DNA from: Archaeoglobus fulgidus DSM 4304
GTDB lineage: Archaea > Halobacteriota > Archaeoglobi > Archaeoglobales > Archaeoglobaceae
Length of the DNA stretch: 32,000 nt
Assembly: GCF_000008665.1 (NCBI RefSeq)
Contig: NC_000917.1
Coordinates: 360,001 to 392,000, forward strand
Direction: 5' to 3'
Positions 6,373 through 19,859 of this stretch are shown one piece after another; position 1 is the first letter of the stretch; the number at the start of each line of letters is the position of its first letter. Made by a program: the position numbers and the translations under genes. The notes below the pieces were generated by a model. That model had not been told where the DNA came from and did no database searches. It saw only the letters and a program-made list of their open reading frames with translations.

Positions 6373-7943
<1,571 letters not shown>

Positions 7944-15650: not shown

Positions 15651-16081
15651 ACCGTCCCGGACACATGGGAGCGACGCTCTTAGCTCTTTCCCCCTTTATC
15701 CCCAAACTGGGTGTGGAGTTCGTCGCATTGGCGGCAATTTTCTCCATGCTGCCCGATGTGGACTTGGTTTTGAAAATCAGGCACAGGGAGTACACGCACA
15801 ACTTCACCTTTGCTGCAATCTCAACCCTGCTGTTCTTCTTCCTTTTCAGGTATGCGGGAATTCCTGAAATGCTTGCCCTCTCAGTCTTTGCTGCGGTGTC
15901 AATCCACATAGCCGTTGATGTGTTCACGATGCAGAAATTTCCGCCATTCTTCCCTTTTTCCAGGAAAAGGGTGGCATTCAAGGTTTTCAGGAGCGATAAC
16001 AGCGCGGTTAATGCCGGATCTTTTATACTCGGCTCGATAGCGTTCGTTTACTTCGCGGGTGGTGGAAATGCTTGGTGGTGA
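15647..16081 (+). CDS. Membrane-bound metal-dependent hydrolase-like protein (YdjM/DUF457-like)
   Basis: The ATG overlaps the cysS stop (ATGA). The protein starts [12 protein letters not shown] and continues ...LPDVDLVLKIRHREYTHN...SIHIAVD, with conserved His/Asp on hydrophobic helices as in DUF457. The family name is from memory. Confidence 0.65.
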   Translation: MNRPGHMGATLLALSPFIPKLGVEFVALAAIFSMLPDVDLVLKIRHREYTHNFTFAAISTLLFFFLFRYAGIPEMLALSVFAAVSIHIAVDVFTMQKFPPFFPFSRKRVAFKVFRSDNSAVNAGSFILGSIAFVYFAGGGNAWW

Positions 16082-17077
16082 GAGCGTTTTTACCTTGGAC
16101 GTCGGTTCCGGAACTCAGGACTTCATGCTGTTTGCTGAGGAGAACGAGAGAAACTGTCCGAAGCGATTCTGCCGTCACCAACGAGAATTCTGGCTAAGAA
16201 GATTGAAAGGGTAGAGGGAGACGTTTTCCTCCGCGGCTACACGATGGGTGGGGGAGCGATAACCTTTGCAGTTAGAAGACACCTTCAGAGATACAGGGTT
16301 TACGCAACAGAGAGGGCAGCGCTGACCTTTGCCGATAACCTCGAAAGGGTTAGGGAGATGGGGATAATCATTGGCGAGCCTGAGGGCGATGCGGTGGAGC
16401 TTGAAACGAAAGACGTGGACATGCCATTCTTTTCTGATTTCATCGAAAAAATGGGCTATGAAATGCCGAGATATTATGTGGTAGCGGTGCAGGACCACGG
16501 CTTTTCACCGCAAATCAGCAACAGGGTTTTCAGGTTCAGAATGTTTGAGTCACTTTTGAGAAAAAACCCCGGCATTGAGGGATTTCTCTTTCACCATAGA
16601 GAGATACCGCCGGAGTTCAACAGGATGAGGGATGCTGCGAGCAGCGTTCTGGATTACGTCAGGGCTGAGGTTTACGTTGTCGATACCGTCTTCGCAGCGA
16701 TTGCCGGATGCGCCCTGCAGGTGAAGGAATTCCCCGCATTGCTGGTTAATTTCGGCAACTCCCATCTAACAGCAGCGATAGTCGATGAGGATTACAGGAT
16801 TAAGGCTCTACTGGAGCACCACACTCCTGTTTTAAGGAGGAGAGGTGTGGATGAGATAAAATCGCTCCTTGAGAGGTTTGAGAGGGGTGAGCTGAGCAAC
16901 GAGTACGTTTTGAGCGACGAAGGGCACGGCTGCTACTACGATGAGGTCGTTGATGTTAGGGAGAGGCTCTGCACAGGCCCCAACGCCCACCTTTCACCCT
17001 TTAAAGAGGTTGGCGGGGACCCGATGGTTGTGGGAAATCTGGGGATGATGTTTCTGCTGAGGAAAAAAGTTACTTGA
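16068..17077 (+). pseudogene. ASKHA (actin-like ATPase) fold protein, DUF1786-like, interrupted by an apparent 1-nt frameshift near 16161-16166
   Basis: A 49-codon ORF (16068..16214, not in the track) encodes MLGGESVFTLDVGSGTQDFMLFAEENERNCPK, a phosphate-1 type DxGxGT motif. The frame of track ORF 16244..17077 is open from 16139 and reads ...AILPSPTRILAKKIERVEGDVFLRGYTMGGGAI. Adding one nt in aag|cg fuses the two into one ~336-aa protein. Confidence 0.55.
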
Positions 17078-17504
17078 CGATTTTCTGTCCGTCTATGGTC
17101 TCGAACTGCTGAAGGCTTTTGCCAACAATTTTCATTTTCATCTTTGAAATTGCACCTGAGAGCTTCGAAAGCTTTTCCTCGTCAAAGGAAACGATTACCT
17201 CCCCACCGTCCTTAACTTCGTCAACAGCAAAGTTAAGCTCAAGCTCCATCTCGGAAATCTCGAATCCGGGAAGAGGAAAGTTCCTGAGAAACTCGTCCTT
17301 CTCGTACTCCTTTCGAATTTTTGAGAGCTCCATGTCAATCAGCTTTTTGGCTGAGAGGGCTGAGAGCGTTATCGATGCCGCGAGCTCTCTTAGGGGTGCT
17401 TTTTTGACTGCAATTTCCGGCTTGTCAACCGGCTTAACCGGCTCGACAAAATCCGGCTTTTTAACGTCACGGGCAACGTCTTTGCGAACTCTTCTTCCCG
17501 GCAT
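17070..17504 (-). CDS. Uncharacterised protein, divergent third paralogue (C) of the 17992..18564 family, with a basic Lys/Pro-rich N-terminus
   Basis: The SD ggggaggg precedes the ATG. The N-terminus is MPGRRVRKDVARDVKKPDFVEPVKPVDKPEIAVKK. The core NFPLPGFEISEMELELNFAV..GGEVIVSF..SGAISKMKMKIVGK aligns with [39 protein letters not shown] of paralogue B. Confidence 0.7.
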   Translation of the reverse strand: MPGRRVRKDVARDVKKPDFVEPVKPVDKPEIAVKKAPLRELAASITLSALSAKKLIDMELSKIRKEYEKDEFLRNFPLPGFEISEMELELNFAVDEVKDGGEVIVSFDEEKLSKLSGAISKMKMKIVGKSLQQFETIDGQKIVK

Positions 17505-17978
17505 TATCCCTCCCCTACCGTAATCGAGTTGCTGAGAACTGTTATCATCCTTGCGATGCCCTCTGGAATCTCAGTCCGCTTTACCTTTATCTTGATGTTA
17601 AGCTCTCCGTTGAGGTCTGTCTTTGTTTCAGCTTTTGGTGCGTAGACGCATACAGCGGCACGAACTTCCCCTTCTGCTGCTTTGACGTTGCAACAATCTT
17701 CGCGCTGAAGTCTATCTCCGCCTCGTCGATGCTGAGGTAGGGAACGGGAACCAATGTGAGAAGCGGGATTTTTACCCTGTTCTTCTCACTCACAGCCCCC
17801 TTTCTGGATCGAAAACCGTTTGCTCGTAAGCCAGCTCAATGCCCTTGGGCTTTCCGTTCTCGTCGATCAGACTTGTTAGAAACTCCACGGTTGCGTTAGC
17901 TGACTCCTGCTGGGCCTCCACCATCGACCTGAGTGGGGTTGCGATAATCTGATCCAGCAGTAAAGCTACGTTGACCAA
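17504..17978 (-). pseudogene. Paralogue B of the same family, split into three reading-frame segments by two 1-nt deficits in G-runs
   Basis: Segment 1 is 17978..17790, segment 2 is 17793..~17670 and segment 3 is ~17670..17504. Segment 3 is my own translation: [55 protein letters not shown]. All three align collinearly with paralogue A. The junctions fall at C5 (17796-17800) and C4 (17668-17671) on the plus strand. The reconstructed stop overlaps the paralogue C start (TAATG). Confidence 0.6.
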
Positions 17979-17991
17979 TCAAAGCACCTCT

Positions 17992-18564
17992 TTACCCTGT
18001 TCCCCCACCTGAAGCTCCAGCAGGAGCTATGCTCTCCTTCAGCAGGCTGAGCAGAGTTCTCATACCTTCAGGCATTTCATCCTGCACAGCATTGACGGTG
18101 ATGTCAAGCTCCGAGCTTCTGTCAACCTGGGACCTGCTCTCCTTCTTGAATCCGTAAGAGGCTGTGAGCTTCACGCTTCCCCAGCCCCATCCTGCTTTTG
18201 CTGTAAGCTTGCTGGCGAAGTCGTGCTGAGTTTTGTCCTGCGCAGAGGTCTTTATGGTGAAGTTGAAGTGGACCGTCATGTCCTTTATCCTGATGAAGGG
18301 CACGGGAAGAATCGTCAGCAAGGGTGCCTCAACTGTCGTGTCAACGTCCGTAACGTCTCCCGTTTCCGGGTCGAGCTCCTTTCTCTTGAATTTGAATGTT
18401 ACCGTCTTAACATTCCCGTCGTCGTCAAGCCCAACCTCCTGAACGAATCGTGCTGTGGTCATCGCTGCAAAGGCCTGAGCCCTCACAGCGGCCTCAAGCG
18501 GTTTGCCAATCAAACTCTCTATCGGCAGAGCGGCAAGCTCTGCTGGTATATTTGCGCCAACCAT
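17992..18564 (-). CDS. Uncharacterised protein, paralogue A (intact, 190 aa); reminiscent of the DUF2589 family
   Basis: The ATG at 18564 lies 4 nt after the strong SD GGAGGTGA. The protein has an N-terminal amphipathic helix (LPIESLIGKPLEAAVRAQAFAAMTTARFVQ). Then come beta-rich segments (VEAPLLTILPVPFIRIKDMTVHFNFTIK, GWGWGSVKLTASYGF, SELDITVNAVQDEMPEG) and a Gly-rich tail. The DUF2589 label is from memory and unverified. Confidence 0.8.
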   Translation of the reverse strand: MVGANIPAELAALPIESLIGKPLEAAVRAQAFAAMTTARFVQEVGLDDDGNVKTVTFKFKRKELDPETGDVTDVDTTVEAPLLTILPVPFIRIKDMTVHFNFTIKTSAQDKTQHDFASKLTAKAGWGWGSVKLTASYGFKKESRSQVDRSSELDITVNAVQDEMPEGMRTLLSLLKESIAPAGASGGGTG

Positions 18565-18622
18565 ACAATCACCTCCGGTCAATTAAAGTGCCAATTGCTG
18601 GCAAATAATTCTTAATTCTGAG

Positions 18623-19162
18623 TTATTTAAGTTTTTCCACCACACTATGTAAAATCCTGCTGAAGTTTTCGCAATTCACCGAGGTCTTGTAATCTTTAAG
18701 CAAAGTTTTTTCAATTTCAATTCCAAATCTTCTCAAGTACATGCAAAACTGTGTGAGGTTGGATGGGCGGTCCTTGAACCTCGCCCTCTCGAAGTCGATG
18801 AGGTAAACATCATCCCCAACTATTATGTGCTTGTCCGGATGGTTCATCTCCTGCTTTTCAACCCCCATTACATCCATAATGAAGCAGGCCTCAAGAGCTC
18901 TCTCGACAGCCTTTCTGATGAAAGCTTCGTCAAACCTTCTACCCCTCAGCCTCTCCATCACTATTCTGAGATTTGCAAAATCGACGAAGTAAAGCTTAGG
19001 GGTGAAGAAGAAAGGCTGGAGGAGCGTGAGGAACTTAACCTCCTTCAGAAAGTTGTACCTGAACCTCTCGTGAAACTGCTTTATCGCGTATTTTTCCGTC
19101 AAATAGACGACTGAATGCCTACCCTTTCGCAGCTCTAACGATTCTCCTAACTCTCTCGGCAT
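18623..19162 (-). CDS. Minimal atypical protein-kinase-like protein (Bud32/RIO/KdkA-like fold)
   Basis: The 179-aa ORF has a VAIK-like Lys (KYAIKQF), a catalytic-loop-like NHPDKHIIVGDD and a DFG-like LIDFERA. The expected catalytic-loop Asn is not obvious. The ATG at 19162 is preferred. The gene overlaps the btpA 3' end by 44 nt. Confidence 0.55.
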   Translation of the reverse strand: MPRELGESLELRKGRHSVVYLTEKYAIKQFHERFRYNFLKEVKFLTLLQPFFFTPKLYFVDFANLRIVMERLRGRRFDEAFIRKAVERALEACFIMDVMGVEKQEMNHPDKHIIVGDDVYLIDFERARFKDRPSNLTQFCMYLRRFGIEIEKTLLKDYKTSVNCENFSRILHSVVEKLK

Positions 19163-19859
19163 CAACCAATCCGCCCCGCTTTATGTAGGTGCCAACAATA
19201 ACTCCGTCGCACCACTTCAAAATTCTGGCAGCATTCTCCGCGTTAACACCGCTTCCGGCGAGAACAGGCATTTTCAAAGTTTTTTTGGCGTATTTCAGCT
19301 CTTCCAAAGAAACTTCTCCACCTGTCGTTTTTCCCGTCAAAATCACCGCGTCCGCAAGACTCCTCTCGGCATTTAGGCAGTAATCCTCAAGTGAGGCGAA
19401 GTGTACAGCGTGTTTCACTGCAATGTCCGCAAAAATCATCGCCCTGCAGTCAACCAGCTTTTTGTACCTCATCACCTCTCCGGCCTTCCCCTCAAGAATT
19501 CCTTCAGGGGAGACGGAAGTGAAGAAAAGCTGGTTAACTCTAACAAAGTCGGCGTTTACGGCTTTGGCAATGGCTAATGCCGCAACGGCGTCGTTTCTGA
19601 GCACATTTATCCCCAGCCCGATGGAAACATCCCTCTTAACCTCGCAGGCTATTACAGTCATCGCAGCGACGGTTTCCTTGCCAACTTCCTTCAAAAAAGG
19701 TTTATCGCCGTAGTTTTCGAGTATTAGCGCGTCCGCACCACCCTCCTCAATTGCCCTGGCATCCTTTACGGCTTTGTCTATTACCGCACTCAGGTCAGTG
19801 TGCTCGGGTGAGCCCGGAAGGGGAAGGAGGTGAACCACGCCGATTACGGTCTTCTCCAT
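19119..19859 (-). CDS. BtpA/SgcQ-family TIM-barrel protein
   Basis: VIGVVHLLPLPGSP...GADALILENYGDKPF...GINVLRND...GSGV is typical of the BtpA family (COG0434). Confidence 0.8.
   Translation of the reverse strand: MEKTVIGVVHLLPLPGSPEHTDLSAVIDKAVKDARAIEEGGADALILENYGDKPFLKEVGKETVAAMTVIACEVKRDVSIGLGINVLRNDAVAALAIAKAVNADFVRVNQLFFTSVSPEGILEGKAGEVMRYKKLVDCRAMIFADIAVKHAVHFASLEDYCLNAERSLADAVILTGKTTGGEVSLEELKYAKKTLKMPVLAGSGVNAENAARILKWCDGVIVGTYIKRGGLVDAERVRRIVRAAKG

Follow-up and report, generated by a model that had tools for sequence, protein, structure and literature searches.

Sequence comparison indicates that three consecutive genes of Archaeoglobus fulgidus DSM 4304, AF0417, AF0416/15 and AF0414 (genes A, B and C), constitute a conserved, independently transcribed module. 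The genes lie in a 32,000-nucleotide stretch of the chromosome, the window analysed here, and their coordinates are given in Table 1. The conserved unit is an A gene plus a C-type gene; a third gene, either a B-type paralogue of A or an unrelated gene, F2, accompanies them. A and B are members of Pfam PF11655 (DUF2589) and C of PF27375 (AF_0414), which are uncharacterized families without a solved structure. That A, B and C are real, expressed and uncharacterized genes is supported, and AF0414–AF0417 were found to be co-induced on lactate in a microarray study (PMC3949148). The module is common across archaea and bacteria, yet it has no assigned function or solved structure and almost no literature.

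Table 1. Genes and sequence elements of the module in the window
Feature	Coordinates	Strand	Description
Gene A (AF0417)	17992..18564	-	Intact ORF, 190 aa; A-type DUF2589
Gene B (annotated as AF0416 + AF0415)	17504..17978	-	B-type DUF2589 paralogue, frameshifted over three frames
Gene C (AF0414)	17070..17504	-	Intact ORF, 144 aa; Pfam PF27375 'AF_0414'
Candidate archaeal TATA box CTTAAATAA	18623..18631	-	Sequence read
Perfect palindrome TGCCAGCAATTGGCA	18589..18603	.	Between TATA box and Shine-Dalgarno
Shine-Dalgarno of A GGAGGTGA	18569..18576	-	Sequence read
B frameshift site 1	17796..17800	-	G5 run versus G6 in intact alleles (DNA alignments)
B frameshift site 2	17647..17648	-	GCGTC versus GCGGTC in intact alleles (DNA alignments)
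T6 run	17063..17068	-	Directly after the stop codon of C; sequence read

The A-B-C order is retained in Geoglobus, A. neptunius, the Nitrosocaldaceae and other Archaeoglobi, where the genes on either side are unrelated. Among 78 non-redundant loci with enough downstream sequence, drawn from about 15 phyla, a gene of the C type or of its long form, F1, stands beside A in 68; the third gene is a B-type second DUF2589 gene in 27 and F2 in 48. F2, the third gene in most bacteria, encodes an unrelated protein of ~190 aa without a family match, and the idea that B is akin to it was rejected (hhalign probability 0.2%). One peptide pattern recovers 259 module loci among the GTDB species representatives, and the spread takes in Archaeoglobi, Nitrososphaeria, Bathyarchaeia, Bacteroidota (including gut Bacteroides and Prevotella), Actinomycetota, Proteobacteria and other phyla. 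Bacteroides fragilis is one carrier, at the locus that includes BF9343_2744. Protein A is 71% identical between Archaeoglobus and the Nitrosocaldaceae, which suggests horizontal transfer. The kinase-like gene and BtpA, raised in the first-pass annotation as possible partners, adjoin the module only in A. fulgidus and A. neptunius; Geoglobus, the Nitrosocaldaceae and about 70 other loci have different flanks, and a functional tie to either gene was rejected since the synteny is confined to Archaeoglobus. The Foldseek viral library holds one true homologue, A0A516MP19 (E 1e-11); a viral module was rejected despite this match, as a scan of IMG/VR gave no module loci.

Protein A matches PF11655 at 159.3 bits (E 1.2e-46; gathering threshold 23 bits) over profile positions 1–154 of 154, so that the resemblance to DUF2589 suggested earlier was right. 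A has 69 homologues; in the family alignment the invariant positions hold Pro, Gly, Ala or hydrophobic residues, together with R92 and Q161-D162-E163. The predicted layout comprises a helix (15–45), a hairpin (54–81), a long amphipathic hairpin (89–163) with the tip AKAGWGWGS, a conserved VNAVQDEMPEG motif, a helix (167–179) and a Gly-rich tail. A and reconstructed B are true paralogues, as had been claimed, with a BLASTP E of 2e-22 at 30% identity and a profile comparison of 99.9% (E 9e-31). As a B-type paralogue, B has a short and variable hairpin tip. GWGWG, which had been described as an insertion peculiar to A, proves to be the conserved hairpin tip of the A-type proteins.

Gene B, earlier treated as one reading frame, occupies three frames in the window (17978–17790, 17793–17587, and then on to 17504), giving fragments of 62 and 68 aa plus a third-frame tail. 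The Pfam DUF2589 model gives the middle fragment 35.5 bits and the N-terminal one 19 bits (gathering threshold 23 bits), and all three pieces match the broad family HMM (58, 54 and 43 bits). Intact B orthologues carry the PF11655 annotation, and an intact B of 158 aa, as in strain DSM 8774, is present in other A. fulgidus assemblies (loci L007, L008 and L012–L014). B in the window is thus a DUF2589 member in pseudogene form, inactivated in this strain by two 1-nt deletions. The G5 allele at the first site is also found in L009, L010 and L011, with G6 in L007, L008, L012, L013 and L014; the second deletion is common only to the window and L011. A third apparent deletion in the window is placed at 16164. 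A -1 slip of tRNA-Gly on the G5 run would, we infer, restore the exact intact protein sequence, and, more speculatively, B as an accessory subunit in A. fulgidus may be toggled by G5/G6 variation in run length. Because B is lost in this strain, B at least is shown to be dispensable in culture.

For C, PF27375.1 is the precomputed annotation of P0070, a protein with 100% identity to C along its entire length, and the family, 'AF_0414', is named after gene C itself. C is the compact form of a family of 230–380 aa (F1 being the long form) encoded beside DUF2589 genes; short and long forms agree at 98% (E 8e-14) in profile comparison. The C-type family alone numbers at least 1220 cluster representatives (50% identity) at E<=1e-3. 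The structure model of C (pLDDT 71) has a disordered Lys/Pro-rich tail (1–34), a helix (38–69), the FPLPGFEISEMELELNFAV strand and a short beta/alpha C-terminal part. The Lys/Pro-rich tail therefore precedes a helix that is retained, and does not replace it as had been supposed.

The three proteins had been described as a triad of mutually alignable paralogues. This description stands for A and B, and C is related to them only at the profile level, over the helix and the PxP strand. C has no match to the Pfam DUF2589 model at E<=1, and for a bacterial long-form relative the score is just 17 bits, below the gathering threshold of 23 bits. In pairwise comparison, A and C give E 0.008 over just 23 residues, which we do not count as significant, and B and C give no significant match. 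The A-C match is of low specificity, because one segment of C, SEMELELNFAV, can be aligned with either of two A strands. In contrast to the pairwise results, hhalign of DUF2589 against AF_0414/F1 gives 86.9% (E 4.2e-6, score 47) over 66 columns, compared with scores of 6.6–10.7 (E>0.5) for ten column-shuffled controls and 14.8 for a reversed control, and the AF_0414/F1 HMM matches A at E 1e-5. The shared columns take in the N-terminal helix and the strand LLxxxP(V/I)P. C also lacks the (M/I)PEG said to follow a final strand in all three, and its C-terminal half has no detected similarity to DUF2589. C is a remote relative of DUF2589 rather than a member, and the two families share an ancient helix-plus-strand element. 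No mention of such a remote link, or of the adjacency of the two families, was found in the literature searched.

The earlier statement that no enzyme motif or characterized function is known for these proteins holds, as none of A, B and C matches a characterized family or a solved structure. With A, B, C, F1 and F2 as queries, NCBIfam yielded nothing of note, PADLOC-DB 2.0 no match at E<=1, and PHROGs only noise (E>=0.01). Profiles of A, C, F1 and F2 found nothing significant among PDB sequences (for A, none below E 0.77), and neither did Foldseek with the C model against the PDB. PDB, Pfam, NCBIfam, PADLOC and PHROGs assign no function to the module, and in the literature searched DUF2589/AF_0414 is mentioned just twice, each time incidentally. 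An enzyme role for A, B and C was rejected, since the conserved residues form no catalytic-looking set.

In the AlphaFold model of A (overall pLDDT 67, pTM 0.43) the strands of the long hairpin run over residues 89–122 and 131–163, and the tip (109–145) is the least confident part, with pLDDT 36–51. Hydrophobic and polar residues alternate family-wide at A residues 91–107, 116–139 and 147–160. Over residues 89–163 the alternation has z=4.4, reached by 1 of 2000 shuffles, and in the tip segment alone it is weak (z=2.4 by Kyte-Doolittle, 1.6 by Wimley-White). The distal ~24 residues follow the pattern F-x-[IV]-x-L-x-A-x-A-G-W-G-W-G-S-V-x-L-x-A-S-Y-x-[YF], in which one face is hydrophobic/aromatic and the other Lys/Ser/Thr; in 30 sequences, A122 is kept in 25, W126 in 19, and W or F at 128 in 24. 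This conserved hairpin may be competent for membrane insertion. The same amphipathic pattern is also compatible with a sheet that rests against a protein core, which counts against a membrane reading, as do the low confidence of the modelled tip, its weak alternation and the dispensability of B.

Foldseek with the A model against the PDB, a check recommended in the first-pass annotation, gave nothing significant (best E 0.13, TM 0.11–0.18). The best of these non-significant neighbours are the beta-barrel pores of anthrax PA, iota Ib, CDTb, lysenin and aerolysin; others, at E 0.15–1.4, are the FliF MS-ring, SpoIIIAG and the collar proteins of phi29, P68 and Andhra. The likeness to the pore toxins (aerolysin, lysenin, and the stems of anthrax PA and iota Ib) lies in the long two-faced amphipathic hairpin predicted for A, and the side-by-side paralogous subunits recall the bicomponent leukocidins, LukF and LukS. 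However, although these toxins are the top structural neighbours of A, they share no significant sequence or fold similarity with it (E>=0.1). Unlike them, A has neither a signal peptide nor a receptor-binding domain; at 190 aa it is far smaller, its N- and C-terminal elements are helical, and it is found in archaea.

It is tempting to propose, tentatively and from the model and family conservation, that the module specifies a cytoplasm-made hetero-oligomer which would either build a beta-barrel or enter the membrane. A, B and C would be made in the cytoplasm, because none of them has a signal peptide; in the family alignment the N-termini lead straight into the conserved helix. They would come together as a hetero-oligomer by way of the helix-plus-strand element that they share, with A contributing its long amphipathic hairpin to an inter-subunit beta-barrel. 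Since the distal ~24 residues of this hairpin have one hydrophobic/aromatic and one Lys/Ser/Thr face, they could cross the cytoplasmic membrane or lodge within it, like a small beta-hairpin pore-former. B (or F2) and C would then be accessory or regulatory subunits that do not insert, and candidate physiological roles would be controlled permeabilization, stress response or antagonism. We know of no precedent for beta-barrel insertion into an archaeal cytoplasmic membrane.

Alternatively, the products may form a soluble heteromeric complex with a regulatory, stress-related or scaffolding role, in which case the extended hairpin would be a modelling artefact and A really a compact beta-sandwich; this, like the membrane reading, is possible without being probable. 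The low pLDDT of the A tip and the lack of a significant fold match both fit such a complex, as do expression that follows the growth substrate rather than an obvious stress, flanking genes that are mostly housekeeping, and the dispensability of B. However, it leaves unexplained the family-wide Trp/Gly tip with its ~10-residue strictly alternating strands and Lys/Ser/Thr face, and, at ~75 residues, the two-strand element is large for a protein of 190 aa that folds as a compact domain.

The structural system suggested in the first-pass annotation would correspond to a self-assembling ring, tube or collar in the cytoplasm, whose hairpins build a soluble beta-barrel without membrane insertion. 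FliF RBM3, SpoIIIAG and the lower-collar proteins of podoviruses combine an alpha/beta core with a long projecting hairpin that makes up an oligomeric barrel, a plan that A would share, and the module contains several paralogous subunits. Yet the Foldseek matches behind this comparison are all non-significant and driven by the hairpin alone, the strand order differs, there are no flagellar, sporulation or phage genes nearby and the IMG/VR scan found no viral loci, and we regard such an assembly as unlikely.

Still less likely is an anti-phage, abortive-infection or inter-microbial antagonism module in which A, as the effector, permeabilizes membranes. A patchy spread over about 15 phyla, the horizontal transfer suggested by the identity of A and the varied genomic contexts would suit it, as would an OLD-type ATPase-TOPRIM gene two genes downstream of the module at one Nitrosocaldaceae locus and a few IetA, PycC or AriA-like genes among the neighbours. 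Against it, the module proteins have no PADLOC match, the loci lack a conserved sensor, protease or NTPase partner, and the genes respond to carbon source. A defence-island context was itself rejected, as just a handful of the 132 neighbour families bear on defence and housekeeping functions predominate. A gas-vesicle-like or other shell of small alpha-beta-beta-alpha paralogues is very improbable: the helix-hairpin-helix topology and tandem paralogues superficially recall GvpA, GvpJ and GvpM, but there is no sequence match (none to Pfam Gas_vesicle), the hairpin of A is about three times longer, GvpN-, GvpF- and GvpL-type neighbours and other accessory gvp genes are missing, and we know of no gas vesicles in gut Bacteroides or hyperthermophilic Archaeoglobus.

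Should the hairpin of A indeed enter the membrane, it would define a new class of endogenous beta-hairpin membrane proteins, archaea included; otherwise, the genes are one more well-delimited conserved module of unknown function. A broader proposal, which we consider rather doubtful, is that DUF2589 and AF_0414 together form an unrecognized superfamily, widespread in prokaryotes, of small hetero-oligomeric proteins, made in the cytoplasm, whose beta-hairpins form barrels or insert into membranes. If so, Archaea and Bacteria would have in common a small beta-hairpin pore system without signal peptides, and no earlier beta-barrel-type insertion into the cytoplasmic membrane of an archaeon is known to us. 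The pairing of DUF2589 with an AF_0414-type partner, the shared element and the conserved hairpin together offer a defined minimal system for expression and imaging.

The first description of the triad is confirmed in part, and its interpretation is supported in part. The open reading frame of A, preceded by the perfect Shine-Dalgarno sequence reported earlier, extends from the ATG at 18564 to the stop at 17992–17994; B starts with a TTG 13 nt past this stop, and the stop of reconstructed B (TAA, 17504–17506) overlaps the ATG of C (17502–17504) by one base, as claimed. The gap between the kinase-like gene and A, given as 40 nt, is in fact 58 nt from stop to ATG, the shorter distance applying only to an upstream TTG at 18582. 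A bacterial sigma-70 promoter scan found nothing, and the sigma-70 model is irrelevant to an archaeon. The candidate TATA box lies ~63 nt ahead of the ATG of A and overlaps the stop codon of the kinase-like gene; a comparable TTTATAT/TTAAATA box stands 45–65 nt upstream of A at 12 orthologous loci with different upstream genes. At the other end, the T6 run is a candidate archaeal oligo-T terminator of the A-B-C transcript. The palindrome, of which A. neptunius keeps a part (TTGACAGCAATTTGCAA), might act as an operator or form a 5′-UTR hairpin.

The three adjacent minus-strand genes A, B and C are related to unequal degrees. A is a full-length DUF2589 protein (Pfam PF11655, E 1.2e-46) that shares 30% identity with the reconstructed B (E 2e-22), and comparing the A-type with the B-type family profile gives 99.9% (E 9e-31). 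By these sequence measures, A and B are certain paralogues, and the first-pass annotation was right in likening both to DUF2589. C has no match in the copy of Pfam searched, only marginal pairwise similarity to A (E 0.008 over 23 residues) and none to B; a protein identical to it is annotated as PF27375, "AF_0414", in a public database. A profile of C relatives retrieved 1220 cluster representatives at E<=1e-3 among 1.84 billion proteins, including many of 230-380 aa matched at both ends, which are the long-form genes (F1) downstream of bacterial DUF2589. In profile comparison, the short (C) and long (F1) forms match at 98% (E 8e-14).

Broad alignments of DUF2589 (A- and B-type) and AF_0414/F1 also match (hhalign 86.9%, E 4.2e-6, score 47, 66 columns), as against scores of 6.6-10.7 for ten column-shuffled controls and 14.8 for a reversed alignment, and the AF_0414/F1 HMM matches A directly (E 1e-5). 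In the aligned element, an N-terminal amphipathic helix leads into LLxxxP(V/I)Pxf.I.e.eI.f.f.I, and the first hairpin of DUF2589 is deleted in C. These profiles argue that C is a genuine, remote relative of DUF2589 in its N-terminal half only. The proposal that all three proteins are mutually alignable therefore stands for A and B, and for C at the profile level over that half. The (M/I)PEG motif ascribed to all three is absent from C, as is the long hairpin. Nor does a basic extension replace the N-terminal helix of C, whose model (pLDDT 71) keeps a helix at residues 38-69 behind a disordered basic tail, followed by a short hairpin and a beta-alpha tail.

As sequences, the genes hold nothing new: DUF2589 counts A and B among its ordinary members, and C is the namesake of AF_0414. 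They do fit their earlier description as uncharacterised paralogues, and in the literature searched the family is named just twice, in passing on both occasions. As far as we found, three points are new: the obligatory pairing of DUF2589 with an AF_0414-type gene in Archaea and Bacteria, the remote homology of the two families, and a third component that switches between a B-type paralogue and F2, an unrelated protein of ~190 aa with no Pfam or PDB match.

The order A-B-C is shared by Geoglobus, A. neptunius, other Archaeoglobi and thermophilic Nitrososphaeria, with different flanking genes each time; Nitrosocaldaceae A is 71% identical to A. fulgidus A. A single conserved peptide pattern, scanned against GTDB species representatives, gave 259 confirmed loci, 80 of which were retrieved and their ORFs called and clustered. 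The archaea that carry the module include Archaeoglobi, Nitrososphaeria, Bathyarchaeia, Hydrothermarchaeota and Methanotrichaceae. Among bacteria there are Bacteroidota (Kordia, Aquimarina, Tenacibaculum, Bacteroides pyogenes, Prevotella, Chitinophagaceae), Actinomycetota, Gammaproteobacteria, Alphaproteobacteria, Desulfobacterota, Planctomycetota, Armatimonadota, Chloroflexota and Bdellovibrionota. Of the non-redundant loci, 78 extend far enough downstream, and in these A is accompanied by C/F1 in 68, by F2 in 48 and by a second, B-type DUF2589 gene in 27. For most of the ten loci lacking C/F1, the explanation is either a divergent C or a crude ORF caller, which preferred antisense ORFs where the genome was GC-rich. 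F1 and F2 occur together at 44 loci, F1 and B at 20, and all three at two; B and F2 are largely alternatives to each other.

Gene order varies among lineages: A-B-C in Archaeoglobi, B'-A-C in Hydrothermarchaeota, and A-F1-B in Blastococcus (Actinomycetota), an alphaproteobacterial MAG and Algoriphagus. In Hydrothermarchaeota-type loci (L041, L051, L062, L076, L030), the upstream B' has a C-terminal helix-hairpin-helix (HhH)/DUF4332 domain, which hints at nucleic-acid binding or another tethering role in that lineage. In Algoriphagus (L095-L097), F1 has 384 aa, and the B-type gene is followed by a gene of 108 aa that matches DUF8259 weakly and may be a fourth, lineage-specific component. None of the 132 distinct neighbour families scanned is a conserved fourth partner; most are housekeeping (AdoMet synthetase, AlaRS, RtcB, haem biosynthesis, methyltransferases). 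The co-occurrence with the kinase-like gene and BtpA that the first-pass annotation wished to see checked does not hold, since both adjoin the module in Archaeoglobus only. The kinase-like gene (180 aa), syntenic with the triad in that genus alone, has no Pfam match at E<=0.01, and related loci carry no precomputed Pfam annotation. A Nitrosocaldaceae locus has an OLD-family ATPase-TOPRIM gene two genes downstream of the module, among the few neighbours of defence type. No module loci were found in IMG/VR; the BFVD viral structure library holds a true DUF2589 homologue, A0A516MP19 (E 1.4e-11, 32% identity), whose source may be either a cellular contig binned wrongly or a provirus.

The first-pass annotation allowed A a promoter of its own, and the comparison agrees with this: a canonical archaeal TATA box lies 45-65 nt before the A start in all orthologues with unrelated upstream genes. 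B starts with TTG 13 nt downstream of the A stop, the C ATG shares one base with the reconstructed B stop, and a T6 run directly follows the C stop. The expression check it proposed was answered by a transcriptome/microarray study in which AF0414-AF0417, "short, DUF2589 related genes", were induced in lactate-grown cells (PMC3949148). Together, the TATA box, the T6 run and this induction support A-B-C as an independent transcription unit. The palindrome, partly kept in A. neptunius, could be a regulator-binding site or a 5'-UTR hairpin.

Features of the module and its surroundings (positions in the window unless a comparison locus is named)
Feature	Position	Strand	Remark
A (AF0417)	17992-18564	minus	intact ORF
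B (AF0416 + AF0415)			two annotated halves of one gene; coding sequence over three frames
C (AF0414)	17070-17504	minus	intact ORF
Shine-Dalgarno of A			GGAGGTGA
Candidate archaeal TATA box	18623-18631		CTTAAATAA; overlaps kinase-like gene stop codon
Perfect 15-nt palindrome	18589-18603		TGCCAGCAATTGGCA; between candidate TATA box and A Shine-Dalgarno
Kinase-like gene	18623-19165	minus	upstream of triad
First B deletion	17796-17800		G-run, G5 vs G6
Second B deletion	17647/17648		one G missing, GCGGTC to GCGTC
DUF1786 gene	16059-17077	plus	annotated putative pyruvate formate-lyase activating enzyme
Third deletion	16164		truncates DUF1786 gene
B' gene, L041	7224-7985		HhH/DUF4332 domain
108-aa gene, Algoriphagus	7396-7722		weak DUF8259 match
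OLD-family gene, L005	8700-10868		Nitrosocaldaceae

The AlphaFold2 model of A (30-sequence alignment, pLDDT 67, pTM 0.43) has, in order, a helix at 15-45, a hairpin at 54-81, a second and very long hairpin with strands at 89-122 and 131-163, and a helix at 167-179. Residues 21-100 are modelled with good confidence, the tip of the long hairpin (109-145) with poor confidence. By column-wise conservation, which is independent of the model, hydrophobic and polar positions alternate strictly at 91-107, 116-139 and 147-160, with a conserved tip, A-K-A-G-W-G-W-G-S. In A. fulgidus A, the distal strands FASKLTAKAG and SVKLTASYGF have hydrophobic faces F-S-L-A-A and V-L-A-Y-F and polar faces A-K-T-K-G and S-K-T-S-G. 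Alternation over 89-163 exceeds that of shuffles (z 4.4; 1/2000) and is weaker in the tip segment alone (z 2.4 or 1.6, by hydrophobicity scale). Apart from R92 and Q161-D162-E163, which in the model would face each other at the hairpin base, the invariant positions are Pro, Gly, Ala or hydrophobic; no catalytic-looking set is among them, and the N-termini bear no signal peptide. B-type proteins have the same architecture, but with a short and variable tip.

The module is real, expressed and conserved; its proteins are small and non-enzymatic with a common helix-plus-strand element, and A carries a conserved, long, amphipathic, Trp/Gly-tipped hairpin. It is tempting to propose, as a tentative working model, that the subunits co-assemble through the common element, that the A hairpins would build a barrel between subunits, its distal part set into the cytoplasmic membrane from inside, and that C, plus B or F2, would be accessory or regulatory partners. 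About as probable is a soluble complex, in which the extended hairpin would be a modelling artefact. Foldseek against the PDB gave nothing significant for the A or C models. The top, non-significant neighbours of A (E 0.13-1.4) are the anthrax PA, iota and CDTb stems, the lysenin, aerolysin and epsilon-toxin pores, FliF and SpoIIIAG rings and podovirus collar proteins; in every one of these, long hairpins build an oligomeric barrel. Because neither fold nor sequence places it in one, the module lies outside every known pore-former family; the membrane barrel, if true, would add a new variant to the beta-hairpin barrel/pore theme. A ring or tube in the cytoplasm, a form that FliF and SpoIIIAG recall, is improbable. 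A defence or antagonism module, which would overlap with the pore idea, seems less probable again, as defence-type families are only a few among the 132 neighbours, and a shell of gas-vesicle type is very improbable. The module is widespread and well delimited, and its structural feature is suggestive and testable.

A curious side issue is the strain-level frameshift pattern in B, read as one continuous gene in the first-pass annotation. Among eight further A. fulgidus contigs, strain DSM 8774 and four metagenomic contigs have an intact B of 158 aa, two independently assembled, otherwise near-identical contigs (L009, L010) have the G5 allele only, and the L011 assembly has both B deletions, as in the window. 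Against DSM 8774, the window shows just one substitution in 6.6 kb but three 1-nt deletions, and each of the deletions breaks an ORF. This nested distribution over separate assemblies favours a G-run of variable length or real stepwise decay in the lineage. For the two deletions that the window has in common with L011 alone, legacy sequencing error is possible; the recurrence of G5 in L009 and L010 suggests something other than simple error. Whether the deletions are authentic or not, the species-ancestral B is intact. The DUF1786 gene is read as 51-aa and 277-aa ORFs in the window and as 336 aa in other A. fulgidus assemblies, and its 3' end is convergent with that of C, the two overlapping by 8 nt.
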